Source of the DNA: an uncultured virus (IMG/VR IMGVR_UViG_3300044629_000710) | Taxonomy: Duplodnaviria; Heunggongvirae; Uroviricota; Caudoviricetes | Virus record (IMG/VR): IMGVR_UViG_3300044629_000710 | Direction: 5' to 3' (one strand) | Length of the DNA stretch: 20,000 bases | Shown: in pieces, positions 1 through 20,000 of the stretch | Position numbering within the stretch: the first letter of the stretch is position 1 | How the letters are laid out: the number at the start of each line of letters is the position of its first letter | Notes under the pieces: model-generated | Told to the model about the DNA's origin: nothing | Database searches by the model: none | Seen by the model: only the letters and a program-made list of their open reading frames with translations | Program-made: the position numbers and the translations under genes

Positions 1-2
1 CC

Positions 3-2150
3 GACAAGGTGTTCGTCATGAACCACACGGCGAGCGGGGAGATCGCCAACATCGTTTCCAGCGACTACATCAAGATCAACCCCTTCGGAGTGGTCTCGTT
101 CCTCGGCAACATGAAGATCAGCCCATCGTCGGATGTCTGGTTTGACACGGGCAAGCGTCCGAAGGTGCAGGTCAATGTCGGTGGCGAGAACGACAACTGG
201 CAGTCAGGAGCATTCAACGGCTTCGGCACCCGTTACAACGACTGGGAGTCCATCTGGTTTGGAAAGAATCTGAGTGCGGAGAAAGTCTCCAAGCCAAACC
301 TGTCCCCCTCACGGCTGATCAATGCCAAGGTTGATGGCGTTGCCCTGAACAGCCTAAATTCGTCCACTACGCCTGACTCCATCAAGAAACGGGTCGTTGA
401 GAAGTCGGTCATCAAGGATGTCCTCCCGATCGCAAGGGAGAATGCCATCAACATCACCGCCAAGGGACTTAAGCCGAACACTCCGTTCTATGTGTATTGC
501 GATGATCTGTATGTGACACCATTCTGCACGGGTCAGAGCGTCACGGACACGAAAGGCGAGATCACGAATCTAGCCTTCCTCTTCAATCGCACCAGCGTCG
601 GCAACAACTACGGGTTCAATGAGCAGAATTTCCCCGTGGGACGGCATGTCATTCGCATCGTGGGCAGCGAATCGCCCGTCACAAATGTGAACACTCTGAT
701 TGAGAATCCCGACACATGGACCATGTCTGCCGATGCGGTCTATGTGGCTGAGGGCTTCTACGACTCGCTTTCCGAGTCTAATATCCTCTCCACCAGACTG
801 CCGTTGACCAAGAGAAAGTCGGCCAAGTCCACCCGCGTCATCTCCAACCTCTCGGAAGTGGTGAACAGTGCGGGAGAGGTGGTCGGCTATCAGGAGCCGC
901 TGTGCCAGACTTTCCTTGTGGACGCGAACAAGTACCCGAACGGCATGTTCGTCAGTTTCATTGACCTGTACTTCCGTGCGAAGGACTCATCCATGACCGT
1001 TCCCGTGAGCGTGGAGATCAGACCCACGGTCAACGGCTATCCTCACCCGTCAAGAGTCCTGCCTTTCGCATCCTCCACCCTGTACTCAGATTCGGTCAAC
1101 ATCGGCGATCGGGTGGATTCGGGCGATGATGACAAGACGAGATTCCAGTTCAGCACTCCGGTCTATCTGTTGCCGGGCACGGAGTACGCCGTGTGCGTCT
1201 CCACCAACTCCCCCGTTTACTCGCTCTTTACATCAAACATCGGCTCGTTCGCCATCAAGGACAACGAGAGCGATCCGGACCTCACTGTCGCCAAGCAGCC
1301 CAACTTCGGCTCGTTGTTCAAGACCCAGAATGCCGGTAAGTTGACCAAGACCGAGAACGAGTTGCTCTGCATGAGGGTGGGTGTGTGCAAGTTCACTTCC
1401 GGAACGAACACCATCCAGTTCAGCAAGAGCGATGCGTTTGGCTCGGATGTCGCGAAGTATAATAGCATCCGGTTCAACACGGCGGTGTCTCTGCCGGAGG
1501 GTTGCTCATACACGATTGGCTTTGACAATCCAGCAGTGGGATATGAGCCGGGGAAGAACATCATCCCGACAACCGGCATCATTGACCTGAATGCGGTCAA
1601 CGCGAATGCCATTCTGCTGTCTTTCACGACAGCCGACACCTATGTCTCGCCCATGTTTGACCTTGAGCGGTCAAGCGTGGTGATGACGAAGAACATCATC
1701 AACTCCAACTCCAACACGACCACCAACGGAGAACTGGAGCCGACGAACTATGCGGTCACCGAAGCCAGTCGGGCAAAGGCACGCTACATCACGAAGCGGA
1801 TCACCCTTGAGCCGGACATCACGGCACGCAATGTCACCGTGAAGATGTCGCTCTCCAATCCGGTCAACCGCTACAACGAACAGACCCTTCTGTCCTCGTC
1901 GGTGAAGGTGTTCATCCGTCCGCTTCCGGTCGGGGAGACGGATTTCAATAAGGTCAAGTACATTGAGTTGACACCGAGCGACACCGGCTACTCGTACACG
2001 GACGGAGACTTCCGAGAGGTGACATTCACCAACATCGGCGACGAGACGCTGCCGGAGTTCAACTCGTTCTCCATTAAGGTCGCGATGTTCGGGGACGACA
2101 ATGGCATCGTGTACCCGCGCGTACGCAACCTGCGGGTGGTCGCGACATGA
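3..2150 (+). CDS. Large virion structural protein, C-terminal part (DUF4815/VrlC-like, T4-like phages); 5'-truncated by the window
   Basis: The frame is open from the window edge (ORF track starts at GTG 9). Motifs INPFGV..F.G....SP.SD.W.DT, GLKPNT.FY, EPLCQTF.V....GMFVS.IDLYF..KD, TRFQFSTPVYL..G.EYA and a terminal F..FSIKV.M.....YPRV.NLRVVA match, from recall, the large structural protein that precedes the fibre/neck genes in cyanophage-like T4 relatives. Confidence 0.8.
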   Translation, partial: DKVFVMNHTASGEIANIVSSDYIKINPFGVVSFLGNMKISPSSDVWFDTGKRPKVQVNVGGENDNWQSGAFNGFGTRYNDWESIWFGKNLSAEKVSKPNLSPSRLINAKVDGVALNSLNSSTTPDSIKKRVVEKSVIKDVLPIARENAINITAKGLKPNTPFYVYCDDLYVTPFCTGQSVTDTKGEITNLAFLFNRTSVGNNYGFNEQNFPVGRHVIRIVGSESPVTNVNTLIENPDTWTMSADAVYVAEGFYDSLSESNILSTRLPLTKRKSAKSTRVISNLSEVVNSAGEVVGYQEPLCQTFLVDANKYPNGMFVSFIDLYFRAKDSSMTVPVSVEIRPTVNGYPHPSRVLPFASSTLYSDSVNIGDRVDSGDDDKTRFQFSTPVYLLPGTEYAVCVSTNSPVYSLFTSNIGSFAIKDNESDPDLTVAKQPNFGSLFKTQNAGKLTKTENELLCMRVGVCKFTSGTNTIQFSKSDAFGSDVAKYNSIRFNTAVSLPEGCSYTIGFDNPAVGYEPGKNIIPTTGIIDLNAVNANAILLSFTTADTYVSPMFDLERSSVVMTKNIINSNSNTTTNGELEPTNYAVTEASRAKARYITKRITLEPDITARNVTVKMSLSNPVNRYNEQTLLSSSVKVFIRPLPVGETDFNKVKYIELTPSDTGYSYTDGDFREVTFTNIGDETLPEFNSFSIKVAMFGDDNGIVYPRVRNLRVVAT

Positions 2151-2359
2151 TGCGACGGGAGAGGGTCAGGAACGAGAACTTGGTCCGAGACCCGAGGACC
2201 ACTGCCCTCCTGTCCACGGACAAGGATGCCATACTCGCCTACGAGCGGAAGAAGCGGGAGCGACAGGTTCAGGAAGACCGGCTAAATACGCTGGAACGGG
2301 AAGTCGCTGCCCTGAAGGAACAGGTCGCACAACTACGCAAGAACGGTAACGCCCCATGA
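2147..2359 (+). CDS. Small conserved T4-like phage protein with C-terminal coiled coil
   Basis: ATGA overlaps with both neighbours suggest translational coupling (start may be 2150). The NLVRDPRTTALLSTD...Y motif followed by a heptad stretch (RLNTLEREVAALKEQVAQL) is typical of the small gene that follows the DUF4815-like protein. Confidence 0.8.
   Translation: MMRRERVRNENLVRDPRTTALLSTDKDAILAYERKKRERQVQEDRLNTLEREVAALKEQVAQLRKNGNAP
2282..2289 (+). promoter_or_regulatory. Putative T4-type late promoter (CTAAATAC), intragenic, upstream of the 1324-aa fibre gene
   Basis: Variant of the T4 gp55-dependent TATAAATA element, about 67 nt before ATG 2356. The same core recurs before five other gene starts. 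Confidence 0.55.
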
Positions 2360-5300
2360 GTTGCACAGCATCCGATCTCATCAAAATCCAGCCCCTCACC
2401 CTTTCGGACACCTTCCACACATGGTTTGACCGGACCAACGAGGTCATTGATGCCGTCAGTGCCGTCAACATCTACAATGTGTCGGTAGGGGTGACCAGCG
2501 GTCTTGGGATCGTCAACGACTGCGCGAATGGCAACTACAACGGGACGATAGTGATTGACACCAATGTCGGCGGCGGTGTCGGCATCGGTCCCGCGAACTA
2601 CAAGACCAACCAGATCGTCATGGATTTCGCGGACCTGCCGTTCTATCTTGACGGCGGGGTCTCGGCGAATCCGGCGTTGAATGACTACTACGCACTCAGC
2701 GACTTGAGCGACACATCTCAGGGACCGGCAGGAACCCCGAAGAAGATCGCCGCGCGTTACATGCTGCCCCCCAAGGTCACGATGGGTCAGACGGGCGGGG
2801 GCACGCTGGAGATTGAAGGAAGTCTCGTTGTAAAAAACAACTTGAGCGTACTTGGTGATACCACATACATTCAGGTTAGCGACATTCGGGTTGAGGACAA
2901 GATCATTGAGTTGGCATCCAGCCCCTATACGGCATTTATGATAGAGGGGGCAGCGTCTGATATTGGAGATATTGAATCCGGAATGACTGCATATGGATGG
3001 GGAGAAGGCGATTGGCCCAATCCCAACAATGAAGACATCATTTTCAAGATTCGTTCAATTCAAAGACAGTCATCCGGCACGACCGCATACATTGAAATTC
3101 ACAGAATCTCCGAGGGAACTCCGGAAGAGATTCAACAAAATAGCGTCATTGAAGTTGATCCTGATGGTCTTGGATTGACTTTTGATGTCACAACAAATCC
3201 CGTGGGCGGAAATGGACTGGTTACGGATGTGGAACTTTCTCCCGCGGGTGTCCGAATCAAGGGAGACGAGGGAGACAAGGACTTCCTCTGGACCAACACA
3301 TACAATCGCTGGGCGACCAACACGAACCTCGGCGTTTCGGACAAGGACTTGTTCGTCGTATCGTCCAAGTTCGGCTCCTATGGGTTTGAGGACGCTTCGC
3401 GGGACAACATCTTCACCTTCGTCGGTGCGTCCGGTCAGGATGTTACCCTCTCCATCGCAAACGGCAGCCTGACGGTCACCGGTGACGGATGGGAAAACTC
3501 GGCATGGAAGTTGGTGAAGCATGCCACCCCCGGTGCGTTGCGGGCTTACCAGAGGATGTCGCTCATCCATGACAGCGGTGCGACTGCCTATCCCATTGCC
3601 ACTTTCTATGCAGGAAGGACCGGTCCCGTGTACGCGGGCGTGGGCGTGAGCGGGTGGGCACAGCACCTCAATGTGGACATGGTTGACGGGGCGCATGCCA
3701 CACAGACCCCGACCGCATACTCCATCCCTGTCGCATACTCGGACGGCAAGATTGACCCGAACTGGCTCATGGCAGATGCAATCCGCAAGGACATCGTGGT
3801 GTCCGGCGGTCATGCCTTCCAAGTCGGCGATGTTGTCCGATACGACGCTCTGGGTGGCTTGACCTTCGCCATCGCGGACACCATCCCGACGGCAGAGGCG
3901 ATCGGCATGGTCTCGGAGGTTGACGGCAACACGGTCACGGTGACCACAAGAGGGTATATCGCCAACATCCCAATCGCAGGAACAAGGTTTGGAAATTTCC
4001 CATATCCCGCCGTCACGGGAAGCGTCTACTTCCTAAGTGCAGACAATTCGGGGCGGCTCATCGCCAATCCGGATACAGGCGATCTTGACGCAGGACAGGT
4101 CCGCAAGGCCATGTTCCTCGCGGACGGGGTCAGCAGCGGTTATGTCTTGAACTATGTCGGCTCGGTGTTCGGTGGCGACTCCACCGACCGCGTCTACCTG
4201 CCGCTCCTCACGCCCGTGGGTTCTGTCCAGCCGTTTGCCGGTGCGACCTCCGGAGTTCCGGAAGGATGGCTCCTGTGCGATGGCAAGTCGCATGTCAAGA
4301 ACTCATACCCCGACCTCTTTGATGCGATCGGCAACGCCCACTTCGCGAACGCCAAGATGTCCGGCTCCAGCGGAACCATCATCGTCTTCGCCGACAACAT
4401 CCGGAACCTCGCAGCCAACAATCCGGTCGTGATTGAGTGGACAAATTCAGACGGACAGGTCGTGTCCTCCAATTGCACGGTCAGCAGCGTAAACTCCGGA
4501 GCCAGAACGGTCACCTTGACGGGCATCGGAACTGCACTCCCGACCACGGATGGTGTTGATGTCCGTGTCTATGGTCGCGTGGCGGGTCAGGACACCAACA
4601 TGGTGTTCTTCGTCCCCGACCTGCGTGGCAGGACTCCGGTCGGGGTGTCCACCCCGTCCATTGGTCTCGGCGTTCAGGGAGGCATGACTGCGGCGACCCT
4701 GCCCGAGCACAAGCACTTCTCGGTGGATACCGCCATCGGAGATGGTCCACAATCGGCTGCGGCAGTCGGTAGTCCTTATACCGGCGGTCTGTCGGCTGGC
4801 TCGGTCAGCAACACGATTCCTACCATGCCTCCCTACATCGGGATGCATTGGATCATCCGTGCCATCAAGACGCTGCCTGCATTGATAATCACGGGTCACC
4901 ACCATGACTCGCGATACATCCGCTTTGATGCGGCACAGTCGGTCCCCGCGGGAACTGTTGGGGGCATTGGTGGCGGATTGAACCAGTTCCATGTCAACGC
5001 AGCGGTCTTGAGCGACGGCACGCTGGGCAGAGACAAGTTTGAAAATAGACTTGCCATCCAGTACCACGGCGATGGAGTGACGGGTCTTGGTGACTGGGAG
5101 TTTTGGGCAAGCACTCTACCCGCCGCAGGTTCATACACCTACTTGGGGGCGAATACATCCCAGTGGTGGTCTCAAGCCGCCTTGAATGTGATGGGTGGAG
5201 ATGCCAGCAGGGCAGTAATCAACATCTTCAACAACAACGCGAATTGGTGGTCACCGTCTGCGGGTCGTGCGGACGAGATGGGATTGAATTTTTATGGTGT

Positions 5301-6330
5301 AGGCATATCTGGCGCAACCGCCCCCGCTAGATTTGCTGCGGGAATCAGAGCCAGCATTCAACAAATTGATGTTGATGGGATTGATCTCACCGATCCTAGT
5401 AGAGTGGCATTGGGTTCTATAACCGGATCCAACAGAAGATACTTTGACATATCTCTCGGGGGTATCACGGACGGTAGACCTGCATTTGCGATCTACAGGG
5501 ACGAGCATCCATCTGTCGCCGGATCCAATTCAAACGCTGGATGGGACAAAACCATACGGTATCGCTTGCCCCACGGACTCACATCGGAGAGCGTCCACAA
5601 GGGATACATGACTCATGTCATGCTTCGCTATGGAAGAGAACTGGTGGAGTACACCGGCACCTCCCTGAGCGGCTCGGATCTCCATGTGACGGGTGCGGTC
5701 AAGATCGGACAGGGATCTCTGTCAAGCACCCTTGATTCCGATGCCAAGATACTGACGGTGGATTCGGACACAGGCGTGGTGCATACCCGCAAGATGCTTG
5801 AGGTCACGGGCAACACCCCGCCGACCGAAGCATCAGAGGTGGCCAACTATCCGGAAGGGTTCGTGTGGTACAAGACCGACACAGGTGGAGAGATATACTC
5901 TCCGGGTCTGACTCCCATTCGCGGAATCATCATGTGGAGCGGAGGATTGAATGAAGTTCCGACCGGATGGGCATTGTGTGACGGCAGAACAGTCGGAGGC
6001 ATAACAACACCCGACCTTCGCGGTCGGTTCATCGTGGGTGCAGGTGGGGAATATGCTGTGAATGCTATTGGAGGAACCGCAAACGCCGTCGTAGTTTCTC
6101 ACACCCATGTAACGGAATCGCCATCATTTGCAAATCAAGTTGTCGGAGGTGTGAGGATATCTAACGGGGGAAGCAATACAACTAGTGTTGGGCTTGATCA
6201 GACACCCGGAGAATTGAATATCGGCACTGCATTCCCAATCGTTGTTCCCGCTCCTAGCAATGCAGTCAGCGGAACCAACATGAACCTACCTCCCTACTAC
6301 GCCCTCGCCTATATTATGAGAGTGGCATGA
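2356..6330 (+). CDS. Tail fibre / fibre-like structural protein with two phage tail-collar domains (1324 aa)
   Basis: N-terminal SDTFHTWFDRTNEVI motif and a VEDKIIEL...GVRIKG..DKDFLW fibre motif. Collar 1 is TPVGSVQPFAG...PEGWLLCDG...YPDLFDAIG...PDLRGR...HWIIRA; collar 2 is PIRGIIMWSG...PTGWALCDG...TPDLRGRFIVGAG...PPYYALAYIMR. Gly/Thr/Ser-rich. Confidence 0.85.
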   Translation: MSCTASDLIKIQPLTLSDTFHTWFDRTNEVIDAVSAVNIYNVSVGVTSGLGIVNDCANGNYNGTIVIDTNVGGGVGIGPANYKTNQIVMDFADLPFYLDGGVSANPALNDYYALSDLSDTSQGPAGTPKKIAARYMLPPKVTMGQTGGGTLEIEGSLVVKNNLSVLGDTTYIQVSDIRVEDKIIELASSPYTAFMIEGAASDIGDIESGMTAYGWGEGDWPNPNNEDIIFKIRSIQRQSSGTTAYIEIHRISEGTPEEIQQNSVIEVDPDGLGLTFDVTTNPVGGNGLVTDVELSPAGVRIKGDEGDKDFLWTNTYNRWATNTNLGVSDKDLFVVSSKFGSYGFEDASRDNIFTFVGASGQDVTLSIANGSLTVTGDGWENSAWKLVKHATPGALRAYQRMSLIHDSGATAYPIATFYAGRTGPVYAGVGVSGWAQHLNVDMVDGAHATQTPTAYSIPVAYSDGKIDPNWLMADAIRKDIVVSGGHAFQVGDVVRYDALGGLTFAIADTIPTAEAIGMVSEVDGNTVTVTTRGYIANIPIAGTRFGNFPYPAVTGSVYFLSADNSGRLIANPDTGDLDAGQVRKAMFLADGVSSGYVLNYVGSVFGGDSTDRVYLPLLTPVGSVQPFAGATSGVPEGWLLCDGKSHVKNSYPDLFDAIGNAHFANAKMSGSSGTIIVFADNIRNLAANNPVVIEWTNSDGQVVSSNCTVSSVNSGARTVTLTGIGTALPTTDGVDVRVYGRVAGQDTNMVFFVPDLRGRTPVGVSTPSIGLGVQGGMTAATLPEHKHFSVDTAIGDGPQSAAAVGSPYTGGLSAGSVSNTIPTMPPYIGMHWIIRAIKTLPALIITGHHHDSRYIRFDAAQSVPAGTVGGIGGGLNQFHVNAAVLSDGTLGRDKFENRLAIQYHGDGVTGLGDWEFWASTLPAAGSYTYLGANTSQWWSQAALNVMGGDASRAVINIFNNNANWWSPSAGRADEMGLNFYGVGISGATAPARFAAGIRASIQQIDVDGIDLTDPSRVALGSITGSNRRYFDISLGGITDGRPAFAIYRDEHPSVAGSNSNAGWDKTIRYRLPHGLTSESVHKGYMTHVMLRYGRELVEYTGTSLSGSDLHVTGAVKIGQGSLSSTLDSDAKILTVDSDTGVVHTRKMLEVTGNTPPTEASEVANYPEGFVWYKTDTGGEIYSPGLTPIRGIIMWSGGLNEVPTGWALCDGRTVGGITTPDLRGRFIVGAGGEYAVNAIGGTANAVVVSHTHVTESPSFANQVVGGVRISNGGSNTTSVGLDQTPGELNIGTAFPIVVPAPSNAVSGTNMNLPPYYALAYIMRVA

Positions 6331-6351
6331 CGATCACGAAAGGACCGAGCA

Positions 6352-7887
6352 ATGGGTGAGATCTATGTGAAGAAGAACGCCGCCTTTGAGAAGGTGGTCA
6401 CGGACGGCAACACCATCATCGTCAACGGTGGGGCTGGGGGTGGTAGTGGAATTGTCATTGCGTCCTATGCCTACAGGAGTGATGCCGACAGCGATGATAC
6501 TATTCCGTACGCATCAAGCATAGATTTCCCCCACCAAGGGACATCAGGTTCATATGCATACAGGAACCTGTCCAAGTACCTTGACCGCGTTCCTGTGAAC
6601 AGCAACTCGCTCGGGAATGGAGCCGCCTTCAACAGCGAAAACGGAAAGTTCACCGCCAAGGTCGGAGGCATCTACCAGTTCAATGCGACCGCGGTGGTTC
6701 AATTGACGCAAAGTGCCGCTGCGGCCAGTGCCGTCTACTTTCAGATGTGGCTGAGAAGAAACGAGACCACCACTTCTATCACCAACACAAACGATTTCAG
6801 GACAGGACAGGTGGTTTCGGTCTATCGCGATGAGGAGGAGTCGGCAGCGGAAACATCGCAGATCGTGAATGTGACGGAGACATGGCAAGTTGAGTTGCAA
6901 GCCAACGACACGATCGTGCTATGTGGTGGTTGGAACAATGCGGGTGGTGCCGTGAGCGTCAATGGAGCATCTCTCTCCGCTACTTATCTCGGAGGTGCCT
7001 CTGTCACTCCCGCCGGTCCTGTCGCGATGCACTATCGGTTCTATGGATTGGCTGGAAGTAGTGGGTGGGCTGGTACGAACTCTTGCTACATTCCCCTGAC
7101 CAACACCACACCGATTCGCATCAAGAATGGTGCGATGTCCGGTTTATGCACCCCATCAGGCGGAGCGATGATCAATGTGTTTGATACGCTCAATTCGTTC
7201 AATCCCGCCACGGGTGTCTTTACCGCTCCCGTCACGGGCACCTATTCTGTGATGTTTGATGGTGCAATTCAGGATGGAGACAATGACGATGGGCAGAGGA
7301 CACACATATGGATTCAAAAAACACAGGCAGGAGCAGAGGTTGCTGCCCCCGCCATTGCTAATGCTTATGGGAATGTTTCTACGCATGCCAGCAGGGCTGG
7401 CGCAATGTGGCCGATCAGTTCAAACTGGTTGGTTCAGTTGAATGCCGGTGACACGATCACATGGAACATAGCGGGATCCTTGTCAAACAATAGTGCAAAC
7501 CCGAACAGTTACCTTGCCAACTTCTCGCTGATGGCGAACCTGCTGACCTCCACGCAGACGGTTGATCGCCAGTCACTCGCGGCAGAGGAAGGTTGGTCTG
7601 AACTGCCCGGTGGCTTGCTGATGCAGTGGGGCAAAAAACAATACTCGGTTGCTGGTTGGCCAGGTCTACAAGCAACTATCACATTTCCCCGTGCATTCAG
7701 TGAAGTGCCTTATAATATAACCACATCATGGGGTGTAAGTGGGTCTTATAATGCAAACGACAATTTCATTGTCCATTATGATGATCCGACAACCACAACG
7801 ATGAAATTGATATTAAATGCTGTAGAAAGCGGTGCGATACCATCCACTAATATCTGCACCAATTGGCTCGCGATCGGCAAGGCATGA
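6352..7887 (+). CDS. Putative receptor-binding/fibre protein: two C1q-like domains plus a C-terminal gp53-like fibre-tip domain
   Basis: SD AAAGGA upstream. Two C1q-type signatures (FNSENGKFTAKVGGIYQFNA...VELQANDTI and FNPATGVFTAPVTGTYSVMF...VQLNAGDTI). The C-terminus GWSELPGGLLMQWG...TITFPRAFS...NWLAIG is a typical tail-fibre tip motif. Confidence 0.8.
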   Translation: MGEIYVKKNAAFEKVVTDGNTIIVNGGAGGGSGIVIASYAYRSDADSDDTIPYASSIDFPHQGTSGSYAYRNLSKYLDRVPVNSNSLGNGAAFNSENGKFTAKVGGIYQFNATAVVQLTQSAAAASAVYFQMWLRRNETTTSITNTNDFRTGQVVSVYRDEEESAAETSQIVNVTETWQVELQANDTIVLCGGWNNAGGAVSVNGASLSATYLGGASVTPAGPVAMHYRFYGLAGSSGWAGTNSCYIPLTNTTPIRIKNGAMSGLCTPSGGAMINVFDTLNSFNPATGVFTAPVTGTYSVMFDGAIQDGDNDDGQRTHIWIQKTQAGAEVAAPAIANAYGNVSTHASRAGAMWPISSNWLVQLNAGDTITWNIAGSLSNNSANPNSYLANFSLMANLLTSTQTVDRQSLAAEEGWSELPGGLLMQWGKKQYSVAGWPGLQATITFPRAFSEVPYNITTSWGVSGSYNANDNFIVHYDDPTTTTMKLILNAVESGAIPSTNICTNWLAIGKA

Positions 7888-8297: not shown

Positions 8298-8319
8298 CGC
8301 TTTCACCATGGAGAACACA

Positions 8320-12657: not shown

Positions 12658-13065
12658 ATGTTCATCCATGCAGGTGACACCATCACGATTGACGGCTTCA
12701 AGATTCCGCTTGACCTCTTCTTGCGGCTTGAGCCGACCTACACATATCCGAGCAATCTCAAGATCCTCAGATATGACGGCGTTTGCAGGCAATACAAGGC
12801 AGGCGACCGCAACTGGACGATCGAGGGCAAGTGGGAGCAGGGTGACCGCTATGTCTCGCGGCTGAAGGACTTCAAGCAACTCCTCGCACAGGAAAGAGCC
12901 GAGCAGCAGGCACTTGAGGCGGAGGTTGCAAAGGCTAAATACCCGCTGGAGGAACCAGTAAATGTCCAGTTGCAGCAGCGGGATGATCTCAACGCGGGCG
13001 GAACTGAAGGAGTACGCCCTAAGAGCAAACGGGCACCCCGTCGTAGAAGTGAACATAACGGATGA
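12658..13065 (+). CDS. Hypothetical protein (possible fibre assembly chaperone, by position only)
   Basis: SD CAGGAG 9 nt upstream and codon usage like neighbouring genes. Lies directly after a fibre gene. The last 104 nt overlap gp13 in another frame. Confidence 0.7.
   Translation: MFIHAGDTITIDGFKIPLDLFLRLEPTYTYPSNLKILRYDGVCRQYKAGDRNWTIEGKWEQGDRYVSRLKDFKQLLAQERAEQQALEAEVAKAKYPLEEPVNVQLQQRDDLNAGGTEGVRPKSKRAPRRRSEHNG
12935..12942 (+). promoter_or_regulatory. Putative late promoter (CTAAATAC) for the gp13-gp17 operon
   Basis: About 20 nt before ATG 12962 and followed by SD GGAGGA (12948-12953). Confidence 0.65.
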
Positions 13066-13816
13066 GCAACTGGAGGACCGCATCAACGATGCCTTCCAGT
13101 TCTTCTCCGAGTATCACTTTGACGGTGTGGAGAAGGTCTACCTGAAGTACAAGTTGTCGCAGACGGATATTAACAACGGCTACATCTCGTTCACGGCCAA
13201 CAACCGACAAAACCAGACCGCAGACGGTTCGGGCTTTGAGAACGCAGAGGCCATCCAGCCATCCGTTGATCCCGACTGCCCCGAGAATGTCTTGCTGGAA
13301 AACCTCATCGTCAGCGTGACCCGCATCTTCCCGTTCACGCAGCAGACGGTGGGCATGTTTGATGTGCGATACCAGTACGCACTCAACGACCTGTACACCT
13401 TCGGCACGATTGACCTCGTCCAGTACGACATGACCCAGCAGTACCTCTCGCTCCTGCGGCAGTTCCTGTCGCCGGACAAGAGCATCCGGTTCAACAGGGT
13501 CGCCAACAAGTTGTACATTGACTCCGACAAACGGCAGTTGAACGCGGGCATGTACATCATCATTGAGGCATACCGCATCCTTGACCCGAGAGTGTATCCC
13601 GAGGTCTACAACGACCGTCTGCTGAAGAAGTACTGCGTGGCACTCGTCCGCTGGCAGTGGGGCGTGAACCTGTCAAAGTACTCCGGCATCAAGTTGCCGG
13701 GTGACATCACGCTGGACGGCATGAGCATGATGAAGGACTCATGGACGCAGAAGGAAGAGATAGAGAAGGAAATCATTCTGAAGGGCGAGTTGCCCGTTGA
13801 CTTCATGATGGGATGA
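12962..13816 (+). CDS. gp13: Neck protein (T4 gp13-like)
   Basis: Motifs TRAELKEYALRANGHPVVEVNITDEQLEDRINDA, EYHFDG, VYNDRLLKKY..AL...QWG.NLSKY.G.KLPG..TLDG, terminal ELPVDFMMG; synteny. Confidence 0.95.
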   Translation: MSSCSSGMISTRAELKEYALRANGHPVVEVNITDEQLEDRINDAFQFFSEYHFDGVEKVYLKYKLSQTDINNGYISFTANNRQNQTADGSGFENAEAIQPSVDPDCPENVLLENLIVSVTRIFPFTQQTVGMFDVRYQYALNDLYTFGTIDLVQYDMTQQYLSLLRQFLSPDKSIRFNRVANKLYIDSDKRQLNAGMYIIIEAYRILDPRVYPEVYNDRLLKKYCVALVRWQWGVNLSKYSGIKLPGDITLDGMSMMKDSWTQKEEIEKEIILKGELPVDFMMG

Positions 13817-13819
13817 CGC

Positions 13820-14713
13820 ATGGCACTCAACCCGTACATACGCACCAACACCCAGACATACCAGCCCGAACGGAATCTCATAGATGACCTCACCATTGAG
13901 GCCATCAAGATCTACGGGCAGGAGATGTACTACATCCCGCGTAATCTGGTGAAGAGGGACGATCTGTTCGGGGAGTCACGCTATTCGCGGTTCACCTCAT
14001 TCAAGATGATTGAGATGTACATGGACACGACCACCGCGTTTGAGGGTGGTGACACATTTACCAAGTTCGGCTTTGAGATCCGTGACAGCGTCAAGTTCAC
14101 GGTCTCACGCCGACGATTCAAAAGAGAGACCGGATCGGACAGGCCACTGGAAGGTGACCTCCTGTTCCTGCCCCTCAGCAAGGGTCTGTTTGAGATCAAG
14201 TTCGTAGAGCACGAGAATCCCTTCTACCAGTTGGGCAAACTCTACTCCTACCAACTTACCTGTGAACTCTTCCAGTTTTCGGAGGAGGACTTCGCTACCG
14301 GTGTTCCGGAAATTGATGCGATCAATGACGAGACAGGGTACAAGATCAATCTAGACTTGGGGGTGCTGTATGGAGGAGGATCTTTCGCAAAAGGCGACAG
14401 CGTATATCAATACGAAAATGGCTCGGCTACAGGCTCAGTTACAGGATCGTCTGCGAGGGCGGTGGTCTACTCGTATGACTCCGGAAGCACTCCGAAAGTC
14501 ATATCTCTTACCGATGCTGTTGGTACTTGGGTTACGGAGACGGCCAAGGGAGCAACCGCCTACATAGCCAAGAACGACCACTCCATCTATGCGAGCATCT
14601 CGGGTCGCGAGGACAGCATGGGCATCCTTGACGAAGCCAAGAACGACATCATAGAGACGGAGGCGGATGAGATCATCAACTTTGACGAGAGCAATCCGTT
14701 CGGAGACCCCTGA
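13820..14713 (+). CDS. gp14: Neck / head completion protein (T4 gp14-like)
   Basis: MALNPY, E.IKIYG.E.YYIPR, KFGFEIRD, RPLEGDLLF.P, FEIKFVEHENPFYQLGK, terminal FDESNPFG. Confidence 0.95.
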   Translation: MALNPYIRTNTQTYQPERNLIDDLTIEAIKIYGQEMYYIPRNLVKRDDLFGESRYSRFTSFKMIEMYMDTTTAFEGGDTFTKFGFEIRDSVKFTVSRRRFKRETGSDRPLEGDLLFLPLSKGLFEIKFVEHENPFYQLGKLYSYQLTCELFQFSEEDFATGVPEIDAINDETGYKINLDLGVLYGGGSFAKGDSVYQYENGSATGSVTGSSARAVVYSYDSGSTPKVISLTDAVGTWVTETAKGATAYIAKNDHSIYASISGREDSMGILDEAKNDIIETEADEIINFDESNPFGDP

Positions 14714-15525
14714 TGCTTGAGCATTTCTACCACGGCACGATACGCAAGGTGGTCATCGCTTTCGCCTCGCTGTTCAACGGCATCTACATCTCCCGCAAGG
14801 ATGGCAACGGCACGGAGATAGAGCGTATCAAGGTGCCGATCGCGTACGGACCTCAGCAGAAGTTCCTCCGTCGCCTTGACCGCATCGGCACCGACTTTGA
14901 CCAGCAGGCTGTCCGTATTGAGACCTATCTGCCTCGCATCTCGTTTGAGATCGGCACGGTCCAGTATGACTCCACCCGCAAGTTGAACAGCATCCAGCAG
15001 ACGGTGGGTTATGTGAGTCGCGATAAGATGAAGGCTCGCTATGAGAGGGTTCCGTATAATCTCACCATGAATCTCGGTGTCATGGCGAAAGGCATGGAGG
15101 ACTGCCTCCAGATCACGGAGCAGATCATCCCCTACTTCACGCCGGAGTATGTGGTGACCATCAAGGCGATTGAAGGACTGGACATGGATGTGGACATCCC
15201 GATCGTCCTCTCGTCTGTCGCTTTCTCTGACGGCGATGACGGCTCTTACGGCGACTATGCGACCCGCAAGATCAACTTCGCCGCCCTCTCGTTCAACGCG
15301 AAGATATACCTCTACGGACCCGTCAAGGAGTCCACCGTCATCACGCACACCGACATCAACATCTTTGACGGCAAGGATTTTGGCAAGGACACCAGCACCA
15401 TCAGGAAGTACGCCGACATCGGCATCACGGCGGCGGCAGGGATCACATCCGGTTCCTTTGACCCCTCGCTCACGGGACAGGTTGTCATGACCATCCGCGA
15501 GTACCCGCCTACACCATGGACATGA
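14713..15525 (+). CDS. gp15: Tail terminator / sheath stabiliser (T4 gp15-like)
   Basis: HFYHGTIRKVVIAFASLFN, KVPIAYGPQQKFL, LPRISFE, VPYNL, QITEQIIPYFTP, YLYGPV. TGATG overlap with gp14. Confidence 0.95.
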   Translation: MLEHFYHGTIRKVVIAFASLFNGIYISRKDGNGTEIERIKVPIAYGPQQKFLRRLDRIGTDFDQQAVRIETYLPRISFEIGTVQYDSTRKLNSIQQTVGYVSRDKMKARYERVPYNLTMNLGVMAKGMEDCLQITEQIIPYFTPEYVVTIKAIEGLDMDVDIPIVLSSVAFSDGDDGSYGDYATRKINFAALSFNAKIYLYGPVKESTVITHTDINIFDGKDFGKDTSTIRKYADIGITAAAGITSGSFDPSLTGQVVMTIREYPPTPWT

Positions 15526-15537
15526 CAGGAGTGAACG

Positions 15538-15999
15538 ATGGGCAACATTGATGAGAACATCGCGAACAGCCTCGGCATTGAGCCGACGAAGGAGATCGTC
15601 CGCCCGCCCGTGAGCGTGCCCGCGGTCGTGCGTGAGTATGAAAAGAGCGACTCCGACAAGGACTATGCCGAAGTCCGCACAAACCTGAAGTGCATCATTG
15701 AGAAGTCGCAAGAGGCGATTGAGGGCATCATTGAGTTGGCGCAGGACAGCCAGCAGCCCCGTGCCTATGAGGTGGTCGCCCAACTCATCCAGTCCTCGCT
15801 GGAGGCTAACACCAAGTTGATGGACCTGCATCGCCGCATGAAGGACATCAATCGCGAGGACCAGAAGGCGGCGAAGATCACCAACAACTCCATCTATGTC
15901 GGCAGCACCGCCGAGTTGCAGAAGTTGATCCGCGACCAGAAGAAGGCTATCGCCTCCGGTGAAGTAATTGACATGGAAGGCGAGGAGAAGGATGGCTGA
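15538..15999 (+). CDS. gp16: Terminase small subunit
   Basis: DKDYAEVRTNL, PRAYEVVAQLI, TNNSIYVGSTAELQKLI; SD CAGGAG; position before the large terminase. Confidence 0.93.
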   Translation: MGNIDENIANSLGIEPTKEIVRPPVSVPAVVREYEKSDSDKDYAEVRTNLKCIIEKSQEAIEGIIELAQDSQQPRAYEVVAQLIQSSLEANTKLMDLHRRMKDINREDQKAAKITNNSIYVGSTAELQKLIRDQKKAIASGEVIDMEGEEKDG

Positions 16000-17665
16000 T
16001 CATCAGACATATCTGGGCAACCCCCTGCTCAAGGGGAGTCATGTCCAGATGGAGTTCACGAAAGAGCAACTGGCGGAGTACATCAAGTGCTCGGAAGACC
16101 CGATCTACTTCGCCGAGAAGTACATGAAGATCGTGACGGTGGACGAGGGTCTCGTCCCTCTCATGTTATATGACTTCCAGAAGGACATCATGCGGTCGGT
16201 GTTTGACAACCGCTTCACCATCTGCAAGATCCCCCGACAGAGCGGCAAGACCACCGTCCTCCTTGCCTGCATCCTCCACCTCGTCCTGTTCAACCCGAAC
16301 TACCGAGCCGCCATTCTTGCCAACAAGTTGAAGACGGCGACGGGCATCATGGACCGCGTGAAGGTCGCCTACGAGAACCTGCCCAAGTGGCTCCAGCAGG
16401 GCATCGTGGAGTGGAACAAGACCAGCGTGCAACTGGAGAACGGGTCCAGCATCGTCTGCTCGTCAACCTCCTCCAGTGCCGTCCGTGGCTCGTCCTACAA
16501 CTTCCTGCTCCTTGACGAGTTCGCGTTCGTCCCCGACCAGATCGCCGAGGAGTTCTTCTCGTCGGTCTATCCGACCATCACCTCCGGTCAGACATCCAAG
16601 ACGGTCATCGTGTCCACCCCCAACGGGCTGAACATGTTCTACAAGATGTGGACCAACGCCAAGAACAAGAAGTCCGAGTTCGTCCCCATAGAGGCATTCT
16701 GGTGGCAGGTTCCGGGACGGGACGAGAAGTTCAAGCAGATGACCATCGCCAATACCAGCGAGCGGCAGTGGATCTCGGAATATGAGTGCCAGTTCCTCGG
16801 TTCGCAGGAGACGCTGGTCAAGCCGTCCAAGATCGGCTCGTTGGTCTTCCAGACACCCCTGCGCGAGAGCGAGGACGGGCTGGCGGTCTATGAGACAGCC
16901 ATTCCCGGACACATCTACACCGCCTGTGTGGACACCAGCCGTGCCATCGGGCTGGACTACCATGCCATGACGGTGGTTGATGTGACCTCTCTTCCCTATC
17001 GGGTGGTGGCAAGATATCGCAACAATACCCTCCCGTCGCCCATCCTCCCCAACCTGATCCGGTCGGTGGTCAGTAAGTATAACGAAGCATATGTGCTTGT
17101 GGAGATCAATGACACCGGACAGCAAGTTGCCGACATTCTCAAGGATGAGTTGGAGTATGACAATGTAATCAGCATCTCCATCAAAGGCAAGAAGGGGCAG
17201 AAGGTCGGAGAGGGATTCGGGGGAGGAAGGATTCACAGCGGCATCAAGATGAGCAGTCAGGTCAAGAAGATGGGCTGTGCCGTGTTCAAGGAGATGGTGG
17301 AGACCGACAAGATCATCCTCAACGACTTTGACATCATTGCCGAACTCAGCACCTACATCCTCAAGTCCGGCTCGTACGAGGCGAGCGAGGGCTACAACGA
17401 CGACCTGATGGCGACCCTCATCATGTTCGGCTGGCTGACCACGCAGGAGTACTTCAAGGAACTGGTCAGCCTTGATGTCCGCAAGCGGCTTTTTGAGGAG
17501 AAACTGCGGAAACTGGAGGACGAGTTGACCCCCTTCGGCTTCTTCGGGGGAGCCGATGATGATTTTGAGGAAGCCTCCAAGGAACTGGCTAGGGAGAGGG
17601 AAGTGTCGGAAAGGTCCAGAAGAAGGGACCGGTCGTGGATGGACGATGCCGACGAGATTCTCTGA
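15992..17665 (+). CDS. gp17: Terminase large subunit
   Basis: YLGNPLLK, Walker A IPRQSGKTT, Walker B FLLLDEFAF, IVSTPNG, nuclease motifs CVDTSR and GYNDDLM. Start ATG 15992 follows GAGGAG (ORF track start 15968). No intein or intron evident. Confidence 0.97.
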   Translation: MADHQTYLGNPLLKGSHVQMEFTKEQLAEYIKCSEDPIYFAEKYMKIVTVDEGLVPLMLYDFQKDIMRSVFDNRFTICKIPRQSGKTTVLLACILHLVLFNPNYRAAILANKLKTATGIMDRVKVAYENLPKWLQQGIVEWNKTSVQLENGSSIVCSSTSSSAVRGSSYNFLLLDEFAFVPDQIAEEFFSSVYPTITSGQTSKTVIVSTPNGLNMFYKMWTNAKNKKSEFVPIEAFWWQVPGRDEKFKQMTIANTSERQWISEYECQFLGSQETLVKPSKIGSLVFQTPLRESEDGLAVYETAIPGHIYTACVDTSRAIGLDYHAMTVVDVTSLPYRVVARYRNNTLPSPILPNLIRSVVSKYNEAYVLVEINDTGQQVADILKDELEYDNVISISIKGKKGQKVGEGFGGGRIHSGIKMSSQVKKMGCAVFKEMVETDKIILNDFDIIAELSTYILKSGSYEASEGYNDDLMATLIMFGWLTTQEYFKELVSLDVRKRLFEEKLRKLEDELTPFGFFGGADDDFEEASKELAREREVSERSRRRDRSWMDDADEIL

Positions 17666-17677
17666 AAGTGGGCAATG

Positions 17678-17692
17678 ATAAATACACTCGTC
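17678..17692 (+). promoter_or_regulatory. Putative late promoter of gp18 (ATAAATACACTCGTC)
   Basis: Intergenic and the closest match to T4 TATAAATA in the window. Followed by SD AAGGAG. Confidence 0.8.
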
Positions 17693-17718
17693 TATCCATA
17701 CTTCAAGGAGATTGAGCA

Positions 17719-19602
17719 ATGGCATTCCAACTCTCGCCCGGCGTAAATGTCACGGAAAAGGATCTTACCACGATTGTCCCTGCGGTCGCAACGACCCGTG
17801 CAGGCTTCGCGGGTGTCTTCAACTGGGGTCCGGTCAACAAGCGAGTCCTCGTTGACTCGGAGAATAACCTCGTCTCCCTCTATGGAACCCCCGACGATGA
17901 CTGTGCCGAGTGGTGGTTCTGTGCCGCCAACTTCCTCGGGTACGGCAACAACCTTCAGGTGGTCCGGTGCAAGGTCGGTGATGACATGACCAATGCCAAC
18001 CCCTTCGGTCAGGTTGGAGCGACTTCCTATGTCCCCAACGATGACTATAACGACAGCAAAGCAGCCGCAACGGTCGGTGGCTTCATCGCCAAGTATCCCG
18101 GTTCGCTCGGAAACAGCCTTGAGGTTCAGGTTTGTGGTTCAAACACCTTTCTTGGAATCACCGCCGCTTCGGGTCATACAATGGGTGGACTGACCGCGTA
18201 CGGCACCAAGTTCTCAAACTGGACATATTCTAATGAATTCAACTCTGCCCCAAGCACATCCTCGGTTCTCGGTGCTCTTGGTGGAACCGGAGATGAGTTC
18301 CATCTCGTCGTGATTGACCGAGGTGGTCTCTTCAGTGGAACCAAGGGAACCATTCTTGAGAAGTTTGAGGGACTGTCCGTCATTGATAACATCACCGATT
18401 CGCTCGGCAACAGCCTCAACTACCGCGACAGGGTGAACAATAACTCTGCCTATGTCCTCGCTACCAAGCGAACAGGCAACTCTTACAGCGATCTCTTCAC
18501 CGGCGGAACTGGAGCGCAGCAGTTCTACAGTTCGGGATCAGTCAGTGGAACCACTGGCTGGAACACTCCATTCAAGAACAACGAGGTCGGAGTTACAGGA
18601 AACAACCCGTCTTTCGGGGTTGGTGTGTATATTCTCAAAAACGGCAATGACGGGTTCACCGCCGGATTCTCCCCCGACTACAAGGACATCGTCCTGGGTC
18701 AGGATGCATCCGAAGGTGAAGAAGGCTACTACCTCTTCCGTGATGCCGACACCGTGGATGTCAACCTTCTCATCGGTGGACCGGAGCCGGTTGCAAGCAC
18801 CAGCAACGCGACCAACGCAGAATGGGTCGGATCGTCGCTCAAGGACATCGCCGATGCTCGCAAGGACTGCGTCCTCTTCCTATCCTGCCCTGTCAAGAAT
18901 CCCCTTGAGACCGAGCAGAATAAGTTGGACCGCTGCCTGACCTACCGCAACTCCATCGGTTCCTCGTCGTACACCTTCATTGACAGCGGTTACAAGTACC
19001 AGTACGACATCTACAACGACACATATCGCTGGATTCCGCTGAACGGCGACATTGCAGGCATCGCTGTCCGTTCGGATGTGAACTTTGACCCGTGGTGGTC
19101 ACCGGCAGGGTTCAATCGCGGTCAGGTCCGCGGTGTGGTCAAGTTGGCCTACAACCCACGGCAGTCGGCACGGGACGATTTGTACAAGAACAACATCAAT
19201 CCCGTGGTCACCTTCCCCGGCGAAGGAACGGTCCTCTACGGAGACAAGACCGCCCAGACCAAGCCCTCGGCGTTTGACCGCATCAATGTCCGCCGCCTCT
19301 TCATCGTGCTTGAGAAGGCAATCGCGACCGCTGCCAAGTACAGCCTCTTTGAGTTCAATGATGCCTTCACTCGGGCACAGTTCCGCTCGCTGGTGGATCC
19401 GTTCCTCCGCGACATTCAGGCTCGTCGGGGCATCTTTGAGTACAAGGTTGTCTGTGACGAGAAGAACAACACCCCGACCGTCATTGACAGCAACCGTTTC
19501 GTTGCGGACATCTACATCAAGCCGACCCGCAGCATCAACTTCATCCAGTTGAACTTCATCGCCACCAAGACCGGCGTGTCGTTCAGCGAGGTGGGTGCCT
19601 GA
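17719..19602 (+). CDS. gp18: Contractile tail sheath protein
   Basis: MAFQLSPGVNVTEKDLT, F.WGP, ANFL.YGNNL.VVR, WWSPAGFNRG, INPVVTFPG, SAFDRINVRRLF, YIKPTRSINFIQLNFIATKTGVSFSEV. Confidence 0.98.
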   Translation: MAFQLSPGVNVTEKDLTTIVPAVATTRAGFAGVFNWGPVNKRVLVDSENNLVSLYGTPDDDCAEWWFCAANFLGYGNNLQVVRCKVGDDMTNANPFGQVGATSYVPNDDYNDSKAAATVGGFIAKYPGSLGNSLEVQVCGSNTFLGITAASGHTMGGLTAYGTKFSNWTYSNEFNSAPSTSSVLGALGGTGDEFHLVVIDRGGLFSGTKGTILEKFEGLSVIDNITDSLGNSLNYRDRVNNNSAYVLATKRTGNSYSDLFTGGTGAQQFYSSGSVSGTTGWNTPFKNNEVGVTGNNPSFGVGVYILKNGNDGFTAGFSPDYKDIVLGQDASEGEEGYYLFRDADTVDVNLLIGGPEPVASTSNATNAEWVGSSLKDIADARKDCVLFLSCPVKNPLETEQNKLDRCLTYRNSIGSSSYTFIDSGYKYQYDIYNDTYRWIPLNGDIAGIAVRSDVNFDPWWSPAGFNRGQVRGVVKLAYNPRQSARDDLYKNNINPVVTFPGEGTVLYGDKTAQTKPSAFDRINVRRLFIVLEKAIATAAKYSLFEFNDAFTRAQFRSLVDPFLRDIQARRGIFEYKVVCDEKNNTPTVIDSNRFVADIYIKPTRSINFIQLNFIATKTGVSFSEVGA

Positions 19603-19622
19603 TTCGTCATGCAGGAAGCCCT

Positions 19623-19630
19623 CTAAATAC
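19623..19630 (+). promoter_or_regulatory. Putative late promoter of the tail tube gene (CTAAATAC)
   Basis: Intergenic, about 20 nt before ATG 19651 and followed by SD AAAAGGAG. Confidence 0.75.
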
Positions 19631-19650
19631 GGTAAAAGGAGTCCTAGCAC

Positions 19651-20000
19651 ATGTCACAGTTCAGCATTGACGCTTTCAGAGCCAACCTCATCAACGGTCT
19701 GGCCCGCAACAACCTCTTCCTCATTCAGGGGAACTTCCCCGGTGCGAACACCAGTTCCATTCAGGGAGCCGCTGCCGTCGCCGGAGCACTTTTCGGCGGG
19801 GCTGTGTCGGGTGCCATCAATGCCGTAGCAGCCGCTGCGGGTGGTGGAAATCCGAGTGCTCAGGTGTCGTTCCTCTGCAAGGCATCCAAGTTGCCGGTAT
19901 CCACCATCAACATCAACAACGCCATGTACATGGGTCGCCAGTTCAAGTATCCGGGTGACCGCTCGTTCGCCGACTGGTCGGTGACCTGCTATAACGACGG
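19651..20000 (+). CDS. gp19: Tail tube protein (T4 gp19 family), 3'-truncated; absent from the ORF track
   Basis: Manual translation gives MSQFSIDAFRANLINGLARNNLFLIQ...VSFLCKASKLPVSTI...YMGRQFKYPGDRSFADWSVTCYND, matching gp19 motifs (ARPNLF, F.CKA..LP, GDRTF.DW.VTV.ND). It follows gp18. Confidence 0.9.
   Translation, partial: MSQFSIDAFRANLINGLARNNLFLIQGNFPGANTSSIQGAAAVAGALFGGAVSGAINAVAAAAGGGNPSAQVSFLCKASKLPVSTININNAMYMGRQFKYPGDRSFADWSVTCYND

Follow-up and report, generated by a model that had tools for sequence, protein, structure and literature searches.

Absence of ACGT and AGCT from a T4-like lake phage and its relatives: a probable case of restriction-site avoidance

Introduction

Why should short palindromic words be almost completely missing from the DNA of a phage, and which agent removes them? 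This question is raised by the stretch analyzed here (the window), 20,000 nucleotides of an uncultured virus. For this stretch, a first-pass annotation had claimed a near-complete avoidance of ACGT, AGCT and TCGA and had ascribed it to long-term selection by host defenses. That phage genomes avoid restriction sites is a principle decades old. We consider it likely that it applies here as well, i.e. that a lytic T4-like phage lineage avoids the sites of host-encoded sequence-specific nucleases.

Gene organization of the window

The window comprises the neck–terminase–sheath module of a T4-like lake phage. Genes gp13 to gp19 are present together with a terminase and a sheath of the T4 type, which defines a T4-like myovirus. 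The same gene order is found in T4-like myoviruses of aquatic bacteria (Melnitz, S-RIM8, Mosig), whose terminases are 52–55% identical. However, no cultured T4-like myovirus exceeds 60% identity in the terminase, and the window phage belongs to a distinct uncultured clade. Its lifestyle is presumably lytic, judging from the family with its T4-like virion and replication genes; the family matches of the scanned proteins, in a scan not aimed at integrases, included no integrase. The features are as follows.

3..2150, + strand: large structural protein, 5'-truncated (match to PHROG 358/877, function not assigned)
2356..6330, + strand: tail (collar) fiber protein (family match)
6352..7887, + strand: variable fiber-associated protein (PHROG 15750) whose central portion is exchanged in a co-occurring strain
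7660..7664, unstranded: CCWGG site 1 of 2 (CCAGG)
7913..8254, + strand: small conserved protein (PHROG 1084/3304)
8308..9519, + strand: GT2 glycosyltransferase, 72–77% identical in relatives G007–G009
9565..12642, + strand: short-tail-fiber-like protein with collagen repeat
10864..10908, + strand: collagen-like repeat, each Gly-Pro written GGA CCN, avoiding GGCC
11432..11435, unstranded: surviving TCGA (Phe TTC|GAT Asp) in the short-tail-fiber gene, within a 93-base patch diverged in the co-occurring strain
12658..13065, + strand: ORF without family match, 135 aa
12821..12824, unstranded: surviving TCGA (Ile ATC|GAG Glu) that overlaps a GATC and reads TTGA in the 96.4%-identical record G001
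12962..13816, + strand: head–tail adaptor, gp13-like, 92% identical in G008
13820..14713, + strand: head closure, gp14-like
14713..15525, + strand: tail sheath stabilizer, gp15-like
15538..15999, + strand: terminase small subunit
15995..17665, + strand: terminase large subunit, 55% identical to its best match among cultured phages (Methylophilales phage Melnitz)
17719..19602, + strand: tail sheath, gp18-like, the query for collecting relatives
18693..18697, unstranded: CCWGG site 2 of 2 (CCTGG)
19651..20000, + strand: tail tube, gp19-like, truncated at the end of the window

Depletion of words in the window

By direct count, the window contains no ACGT, no AGCT and two TCGA (11432 and 12821). 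Base composition predicts 76.1 of each, close to the roughly 70–75 estimated by eye in the first-pass annotation, and a maximal-order Markov model predicts 61 ACGT, 44 AGCT and 95 TCGA. When the synonymous codons of the 14 genes were shuffled 300 times, the means amounted to 65.7, 67.2 and 144.5, and the lowest values of 50, 50 and 125 still lie far above the observed counts. The near-complete avoidance thus remains under both controls, which rules out dinucleotide or codon bias as its cause. An assembly artifact is ruled out by identical zeros in many independent records and by codon compensation.

Other palindromes are well represented, as the annotation had noted: GATC occurs 116 times, CCGG 123 times and CATG 107 times. 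GCGC (13) and GGCC (19) are reduced yet present, with an observed/expected ratio of about 0.2, i.e. a five-fold depletion. Overlooked at first was CCWGG, which is also near-absent (2 versus 52.5 expected from codon shuffling). Several 6-mers are at or near zero even when measured against a shuffle that already excludes ACGT, AGCT and TCGA: GACGCC (0/18 observed/expected), GAGCCC (0/12), GCCGGC (0/10), GACGAC (2/28) and CACGAG (1/11). The pattern has the form expected of type II restriction-modification avoidance, with a palindrome bias below 0.1 at expectations above 15 and beyond codon or amino-acid effects.

Codon choice and frame dependence

The words are avoided by context-dependent synonymous codon choice, and the codon contexts proposed from reading the sequence were borne out in the counts. 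In front of GAN codons, the window genes use NTT 134 times and NTC twice, whereas at other positions NTC (855) prevails over NTT (178). Preceding GTN (Val), NAT occurs 65 times and NAC never, compared with 728 NAC and 349 NAT elsewhere. None of the 639 AAG/GAG/CAG codons is followed by CTN, whereas 31 are followed by TTR. The rule that Gly-Pro in the collagen repeat is always GGA CCN holds as well; across the window, the Gly codons of Gly-Pro are GGA (15) or GGT (6) and never GGC or GGG.

In the synonymous frame, the words that transitions would produce are enriched (ATGT 65 versus 24, AGTT 70 versus 41, TTGA 134 versus 38), as would be the case if methylated C in these words had decayed to T by deamination. 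However, synonymous escape yields the identical enrichment, and the zeros of ACGT and AGCT hold in all three codon frames. In the frames xxA|CGT and xxA|GCT, in which transitions are nonsynonymous, G007 has none versus 98 and 123 expected, and G008 none versus 92 and 136 expected. The uncalled DNA of G007 lacks both words as well (94 expected of each). Moreover, no m5C methylase was found in G007–G010 or in three of the five most ACGT-poor hosts tested. Because of the zeros in every codon frame, selection is favored over methyl-C decay, and decay is hardly credible as the cause.

The non-palindromic ACCT/AGGT is not eliminated, and ACGT and AGCT uncouple, which rules out a single enzyme for A-S-S-T. 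Non-palindromic 5- and 6-mers, on the other hand, have disappeared from sense and antisense strands alike (CACTG 0/0 and GAGCAC 0/0, in both G007 and G008). Their absence from both strands fits recognition of double-stranded DNA.

tRNA genes

Selection rather than mutation is also indicated by noncoding DNA, including tRNA genes. AGCT is found in none of the 37 tRNA genes of the four relatives G007–G010 versus 29 of 43 tRNAs in bacterial loci. Of 20 D-stems checked in the phage tRNAs, 16 keep four pairs, and the paired changes in these stems are again at odds with decay. The D-stem changes provide a measure of how strong the selection is.

An RNA-level pressure, in which a host endoribonuclease toxin cleaves ACGU and AGCU in phage mRNA and tRNA, would also affect tRNA genes, and palindromes do not reveal which strand is targeted; the same model was raised in the account of AGCT in pandoraviruses (10.1101/712018). 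Against it stand the AGCU of those 29 host tRNAs, the palindromic nature of all 4-mers eliminated in the relatives and the loss of non-palindromic words on both strands. We regard this pressure as very improbable.

Distribution over the phage clade

The absence extends over the clade. Among the 28 closest sheath relatives (L001–L028, 286 kb), one ACGT and seven AGCT were counted versus 768 and 713 expected, whereas the more distant L029–L079 have 1759 ACGT versus 2069 expected and 2129 AGCT versus 2411 expected. Neither word occurs in two relatives of 177 and 168 kb that are nearly complete; the observed/expected counts are 0/451 (ACGT) and 0/405 (AGCT) for G007, and 0/421 and 0/418 for G008. 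The nearest record, G001 (7.6 kb), differs from the window at 244 positions and contains no ACGT, AGCT or TCGA. Among the population variants, none of the 40 listed of about 1,020 creates a site, a number too small for a test.

On the tree of the ribonucleotide reductase (RNR; FastTree, 78 of 80 rows), whose gene may itself move between phages, 31 of 78 loci are null for both words, 11 for ACGT only, 17 for AGCT only and 19 for neither, and these classes are interleaved. The two words hence vary separately, which points to host pressures. The relatives avoid further words in lineage-specific sets, including CCGG, CGCG, GGCC, CAGTG and many 6-mers. The three words had been presented as one signal; ACGT and AGCT are indeed avoided clade-wide, but TCGA is lineage-specific and does not belong with them.

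Within the sheath clade (70 of 80 rows, on a rapidly built tree with no bootstrap values), which spans 37–59% GC, the absence of the ACGT/AGCT pair is invariant. Such constancy, a zero that is absolute even in tRNA genes, and many conserved genes without a family would suit a phage whose own ACGT/AGCT-specific nuclease degrades host DNA while its own genome is site-free. This self-avoidance appears improbable: on the RNR tree, avoidance of the two words is uncoupled and partly relaxed at many points, the G007 proteins (91 scanned in Pfam, 47 in PHROGs) include no conserved family of site-specific nucleases, and the lineage-specific sets would need host pressure anyway.

DNA modification and antirestriction genes

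The first-pass annotation had suggested that the DNA is not fully shielded by hypermodification. Consistent with this, the thymidylate-synthase/hydroxymethylase family (PF00303) is absent from all five related records scanned, two of which are more than 90% complete; the Mom-like genes of G008 and G009 and a weak DUF1599 match in G007 weigh on the other side. Antirestriction genes of the relatives include SAM lyase-like genes (G007–G009), Mom-like genes (G008 and G009) and N6/N4 methyltransferases (G007, G009 and G010).

Candidate host defenses

The likely explanation, selection by host nucleases, would operate as follows. Host-encoded, type II-like nucleases specific for double-stranded DNA would cleave unprotected ACGT and AGCT. 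Both specificities would be widespread and of long standing in the hosts, so that the clade holds both words at zero through synonymous codon choice and altered tRNA D-stems. Further words would be contributed by systems of greater mobility, each confined to certain host lineages, in the window TCGA, CCWGG and partly GCGC and GGCC. Long-term selection by a sequence-specific defense, as first proposed, is supported; the AluI-, MaeII- and TaqI-type systems named with it stand for sites only. AluI and MaeII/HpyCH4IV are the enzyme names for the AGCT and ACGT specificities.

The hosts are probably Phycisphaerales (Planctomycetota). Dockerin and cohesin domains and exosortase-type tails occur as host-marker genes in the relatives rather than in the window itself. 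Of 443 viral loci, six encode proteins with PxP[GA]...RRRR tails, and each of the six is null for ACGT and AGCT or for AGCT; these exosortase-type tails match tails in Phycisphaerales loci and therefore suggest such hosts. In a search of 401 Planctomycetota, the phage protein matches best in G394 (39%) and G250, whereas 121 Verrucomicrobiota gave no match. Besides the two phyla so searched, Acidobacteriota also appear among the atlas matches. On a tmRNA tree, the phage tmRNAs join Polynucleobacter on a long branch and not Phycisphaerales, toward which the pairwise scores lean. A CRISPR spacer search gave seven short matches in 251 Phycisphaerales, none in spacer context, a weak negative since many MAGs have no arrays. 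Neither a co-binned contig nor a spacer links the window to these genomes or to GTDB genomes as a whole; the 42 loci of phage contigs binned together with GTDB genomes come from mixed taxa, and none is null for both words. Homolog and cluster look-ups of phage proteins returned no host names, and no Phycisphaerales stretch examined matches the full word profile of the window. The host fingerprint expected from the motifs is present, but it would reach the level of an order only.

Some Planctomycetota chromosomes are themselves poor in these words. The ACGT-bearing 6-mer GACGTG is depleted in 19 of 251 Phycisphaerales, with counts of 1 in G593 (2.6 Mb), 7 in G566 and 11 in G647, the three measuring 2.6–3.2 Mb. 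The ACGT/AGCT pair is purged from G096 and G142, and G096 also lacks TCGA. As hosts, however, G096, G142, G051 and G325 were rejected, since GATC and CATG, both kept by the phage, are purged there too; G071 was rejected as it keeps ACGT.

Pairs of type II endonuclease and methyltransferase were detected in G566 and G593 by PADLOC models, which carry no specificity; with such models, no nuclease specific for ACGT or AGCT was identified. Loci with type II pairs include L485, L488, L496 and L505. G591 and G633, the two small Phycisphaerales poorest in both words, show only two N6/N4 methyltransferases, with no adjoining nuclease seen and no m5C enzyme. In another scenario, orphan methyltransferases found throughout the host order mark ACGT, AGCT or both on phage DNA, which is then cut by modification-dependent nucleases (type IV, Mrr-like) of hosts without that methylase; alternatively, solitary nucleases would depend either on the orphan methylase or on a chromosome free of the site. 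A beta-class N6/N4 methyltransferase without adjacent nuclease (loci read) is indeed present in 130 of 251 Phycisphaerales and in 16 of the 19 GACGTG-poorest genomes (Fisher p = 0.004, ignoring kinship), to which the low counts of G593, G566 and G647 add. Furthermore, the CTAG and GATC absent from HF1 haloviruses are tied to the widespread Zim methylase and to Mrr, as reported (PMC7230728). However, 114 carriers of the orphan methyltransferase lack strong depletion, and a second orphan family occurs in G593 and G560, whose AGCT is normal, and is absent among the matches of G250 and G600. A one-to-one correspondence of orphan families A (L489:1381-2334) and B (L494:1489-2244) with ACGT and AGCT was not borne out, and we consider the orphan route unlikely.

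Somewhat less doubtful, yet still rather unlikely, is the proposal that ACGT and AGCT are targets of an undescribed defense widespread in Phycisphaerales, and perhaps other phyla, rather than of an orthodox endonuclease–methyltransferase pair. Solitary nucleases might lean on order-wide orphan methyltransferases, or might do without a methylase where the chromosome is emptied of the word (1 GACGTG in 2.6 Mb in G593). If so, this defense would have left its record in an entire clade of phages, down to the stems of their tRNAs.

Comparison with known systems

Restriction-site avoidance is a known kind of phenomenon. Nontemperate dsDNA phages are reported to avoid orthodox type II restriction-modification sites, with avoidance in 2.4% of cases with and 55.8% without a hydroxymethylase (Rusinov et al. 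2018, PMC6286503). The window shares with the cases described there palindromic words of 4–6 bp, a bias below 0.1 at more than 15 expected, and a presumably lytic T4-like phage with no hydroxymethylase gene found in its relatives. Unlike in those cases, the zeros of two words span a deep clade of uncultured phages, the avoidance extends to tRNA genes, and the host can be named only as probable.

The closest precedent is the HF1 group of haloviruses, in which CTAG and GATC are reported absent group-wide, AGCT in one member, along with 21 6-mers, and whose host genomes are also poor in one word and carry a widespread methylase (Dyall-Smith et al. 2020, PMC7230728). Both groups lack two tetramers throughout and, in a limited lineage, all or nearly all copies of a third; the host genomes, probable ones in the case of the window clade, are poor in one word and carry a widespread methylase. 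However, the HF1 group infects archaea, its hosts are known and the words it avoids are different, whereas the window clade consists of freshwater bacterial T4-like phages avoiding ACGT and AGCT.

In clade A pandoraviruses, AGCT is described as wholly missing with ACGT normal, the authors rejecting restriction-modification, and five large enterobacterial phages miss GCGC (Poirot et al., 10.1101/712018). Total absence of AGCT from a large viral genome, with no cause identified, is common to both systems; pandoraviruses, however, have eukaryotic hosts and lack one word, whereas the window clade has lost many classical sites together. In a literature search, mostly of the main texts of open journals, no paper dealing with this group of phages or with the ACGT/AGCT pair of Phycisphaerales was found; the site tables of PMC6286503 and the motif tables of PMC8919816 may be relevant here.

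Should the host assignment be right, the missing words would serve as a host label for a lake clade of T4-like phages that is abundant and uncultured, and would supply a list of specificities (ACGT, AGCT and lineage-specific sets) to look for in Phycisphaerales methylomes. The recurrence of the ACGT/AGCT pair in phages and in the chromosomes of G096 and G142 makes the nuclease search a concrete project.

Surviving sites

Both TCGA sites of the window have the form xTC|GAx. For the one at 12821, Dam methylation of the overlapping GATC had been suggested to block TaqI. This idea was rejected: in TCGA-poor relatives, whose loci are partly redundant, 16 of the 88 surviving TCGA overlap a GATC, compared with 149 of the 786 TCGA of a TCGA-rich relative, the Dam family (PF02086) had no match above cut-off in the five related records, and G001 carries TTGA at this site. 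A TaqI-type system likewise finds no support, as the RE_TaqI family is absent from all 101 Phycisphaerales searched (host order inferred), with a positive control in Thermus.

Shielding of surviving GGCC by Mom was discarded as well, the flank rule being weak in the Mom-carrying G008 (24/79) and G009 (37/79). In the window, all 19 surviving GGCC have a T before or an A after, as do 36 of 39 in G004.

Depletion of short words in the window

The window is a T4-like phage module with tail fibre, neck, terminase, sheath, and tube genes; the top cultured match of its terminase is 55%. All 24 listed runs containing it are lake-water metagenomes, three of them possibly its source. In a co-occurring strain, positions 6451–6994, the middle of a 511-residue gene, are occupied by 662 other bases.

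The first-pass annotation had described a near-absence of ACGT, AGCT, and TCGA, obtained by context-dependent codon choice, and both parts are borne out by counting. At 55.8% GC, base composition predicts 76 copies of each word, and 0, 0, and 2 are observed. Synonymous-codon shuffling (14 genes, 300 shuffles) gives means of 65.7, 67.2, and 144.5 with minima of 50, 50, and 125. The codon rules are exact: NTT exceeds NTC by 134 to 2 before GAN codons, NAT exceeds NAC by 65 to 0 before GTN codons, and NAG directly precedes CTN in 0 of 639 cases. CCWGG (2 observed versus 52.5 expected) belongs to the same set, and several 6-mers are at or near zero even against a shuffle with the three tetramers already forbidden. 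GCGC and GGCC stand at ~0.2 of expectation. Surviving GGCC has T before or A after in 19 of 19 instances (~40% expected), and surviving GCGC in 10 of 13. The same flank rule for GGCC is seen in the phage relatives G004 (36/39) and G001 (6/7). The sequences actually targeted may be longer than four bases or degenerate.

Selection at the DNA level

Every codon frame is free of ACGT and AGCT, even where C-to-T would alter the protein, and so is uncalled DNA. Non-palindromic missing words are gone from both strands. ACCT and AGGT are not eliminated; hence, a single degenerate enzyme is unlikely. In the tRNA genes of the relatives G007–G010, AGCT occurs in 0 of 37; among the tRNAs of bacterial loci 29 of 43 have it, and among those of other phage loci, 6 of 17. 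Their D-arm starts with TAGCAC, TAGCGC, or TAACTC in place of the usual TAGCTC, and four pairs are retained in 16 of 20 D-stems checked. An unrelated genome (L592) has TAGCAC in a tRNA array too, so some of these variants may not be new changes.

Spread over the phage clade

The loss of ACGT and AGCT is real, strong, and clade-wide. Among 79 sheath relatives, the nearest 28 (52–87% identity, 37–59% GC, 286 kb) contain one ACGT versus 768 expected and seven AGCT versus 713, all seven in one locus (L026); the remaining 51 are near expectation. In a quick tree, the window and these 28 fall into one 30-row clade (support 98), which includes two long-branch rows without the trait. Larger records were reached through RNR and gp46 searches. 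G007 (177 kb, 98% complete) has 0 ACGT of 451 expected and 0 AGCT of 405, and G008 (168 kb, 93% complete) likewise lacks both, against 421 and 418 expected; the pattern of G009 and G010 agrees. G008 shares gp13 (92% identity) and terminase (77%) with the window. The short record G001, 96.4% identical to the window over 7.7 kb, differs from it at 244 sites and contains no ACGT, AGCT, or TCGA; of the synonymous changes possible, 4–6% would generate one of these words. Each of G007–G010 has its own word set, with 7–18 further 6-mers at zero: CCGG is absent from G008–G010, GGCC from G010, and CAGTG from G007 and G008. TCGA remains at 0.5–0.9 of expectation in these four genomes and is near zero only in some lineages, including that of the window. 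Remoter T4-like contigs (L682–L692, L699, L700; terminase 52–58%) lack either AGCT alone or ACGT and AGCT together.

Host pressure or phage enzyme

The RNR tree of 78 loci comprises 31 null for both words, 11 for ACGT only, 17 for AGCT only, and 19 for neither, the last mostly at 0.2–0.8 of expectation, and the four states are interleaved. This separate variation of the two words, as pressures that come and go, suits host defences better than a single phage enzyme, although RNR can be exchanged between phages. As to phage enzymes, no conserved site-specific nuclease family was found among the phage-relative proteins scanned. N6/N4 methyltransferases number two in G007 and one each in G009 and G010, with none found in G008. 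No m5C methylase passed the cut-off in G007–G010, and no Dam- or hydroxymethylase-family gene did so in five related records. Other anti-restriction genes are SAM-lyase-like (G007–G009) and Mom-like:

L388:10124–11044 and G009 near 38434: Mom-like DNA-modification gene, in G008 and G009

One G007 methyltransferase frame (L379:10434–12134) appears to be interrupted by the insertion of an HNH-like ORF; the insert may be an intron or a homing element. Amid sugar-nucleotide genes, G010 carries a RuBisCO-large-chain family match (L401:5255–6445, E 5e-37).

Relation to known systems

The phenomenon works like classical restriction-site avoidance. According to Rusinov et al. (PMC6286503), elimination concerns ~7% of type II site–phage pairs, chiefly in non-temperate phages. 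The closest case is that of the HF1 haloviruses, for which PMC7230728 gives two tetramers missing group-wide and 21 missing 6-mers. Pandoraviruses are described as missing AGCT from a cause not known (10.1101/712018). Among lake and marine methylomes (PMC6329791, PMC8919816), m4C AGCT is reported in Thaumarchaeota, and ACGT is not mentioned in either main text. Out of the ordinary are how deep the ACGT/AGCT pair reaches, the involvement of tRNA stems, and the fact that candidate hosts purge ACGT themselves.

Candidate hosts

Secreted proteins of the phage relatives bear PxP[GA]-hydrophobic-RRRR tails, as well as dockerin and cohesin domains, and are possibly displayed on the infected cell:

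L087:15221–17740, L382:7253–8287, L382:6134–6820: T4-like phage proteins with a dockerin domain, a cohesin domain, or an exosortase-type tail

Of 443 viral loci, 6 encode such a tail; they represent four distinct records or lineages, and every one lacks either both words or AGCT. Bacterial clusters in an atlas rank Planctomycetota first and Acidobacteriota second. Against 401 Planctomycetota, the phage protein best matches G394 (39%) and G250, the latter placed in Phycisphaerales by named homologues of one of its proteins; 0 of 121 Verrucomicrobiota match. GACGTG falls below 0.15 of its reversed-word control in 19 of 251 Phycisphaerales genomes, a tally that takes in one unpublished genome (G500) outside the 19. 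Direct counts give ACGT at 0.00–0.05 of expectation in G593, G566, G647, G560, G602, G464, and G250. AGCT is reduced in G633 (0.17), G591 (0.26), G464 (0.30), and G250 (0.46) and normal in others. The chromosomes of G593, G566, and G647 (L468–L472), almost ACGT-free with normal AGCT, hold 1, 7, and 11 GACGTG, respectively. Support from tmRNA is weak:

L389:1090–1432 and L393:7885–8237: tmRNA genes carried by the phages G008 and G009

Neither spacers of the 251 Phycisphaerales nor co-binned contigs of GTDB genomes gave a direct link, and passages of PMC12143481, PMC13035462, 10.64898/2026.02.18.706586, and 10.64898/2026.07.13.738189 connect no T4-like phages with this order. Taken together, we lean toward Phycisphaerales as the hosts.

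ACGT-poor Phycisphaerales have 2–9 N6/N4 methyltransferase matches per genome, part of them in type II pairs of unassigned specificity. Three conserved families are orphans, with no nuclease neighbouring them in the loci read:

L489:1381–2334: family A
L494:1489–2244: family B
L504:1411–2301: third family

Of the 251 genomes, 130 carry family A, among them 16 of the 19 depleted in GACGTG, but the majority of carriers show no such depletion; in G591 and G633, A and B are the only methyltransferases seen. RE_TaqI is found in 0 of 101 Phycisphaerales, and no nuclease tied to ACGT or AGCT was identified in the loci examined.

The start of a Cas9-like gene in the bacterial genome G071 (L406:3–2474) was judged by eye from its N terminus. 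In the small Planctomycetota genomes G096 (L412, L413), G142 (L414), G051, and G325, many 4-base palindromes are almost purged; in G096, ACGT, AGCT, CTAG, GATC, GGCC, and TCGA are all at ≤0.05 of expectation.
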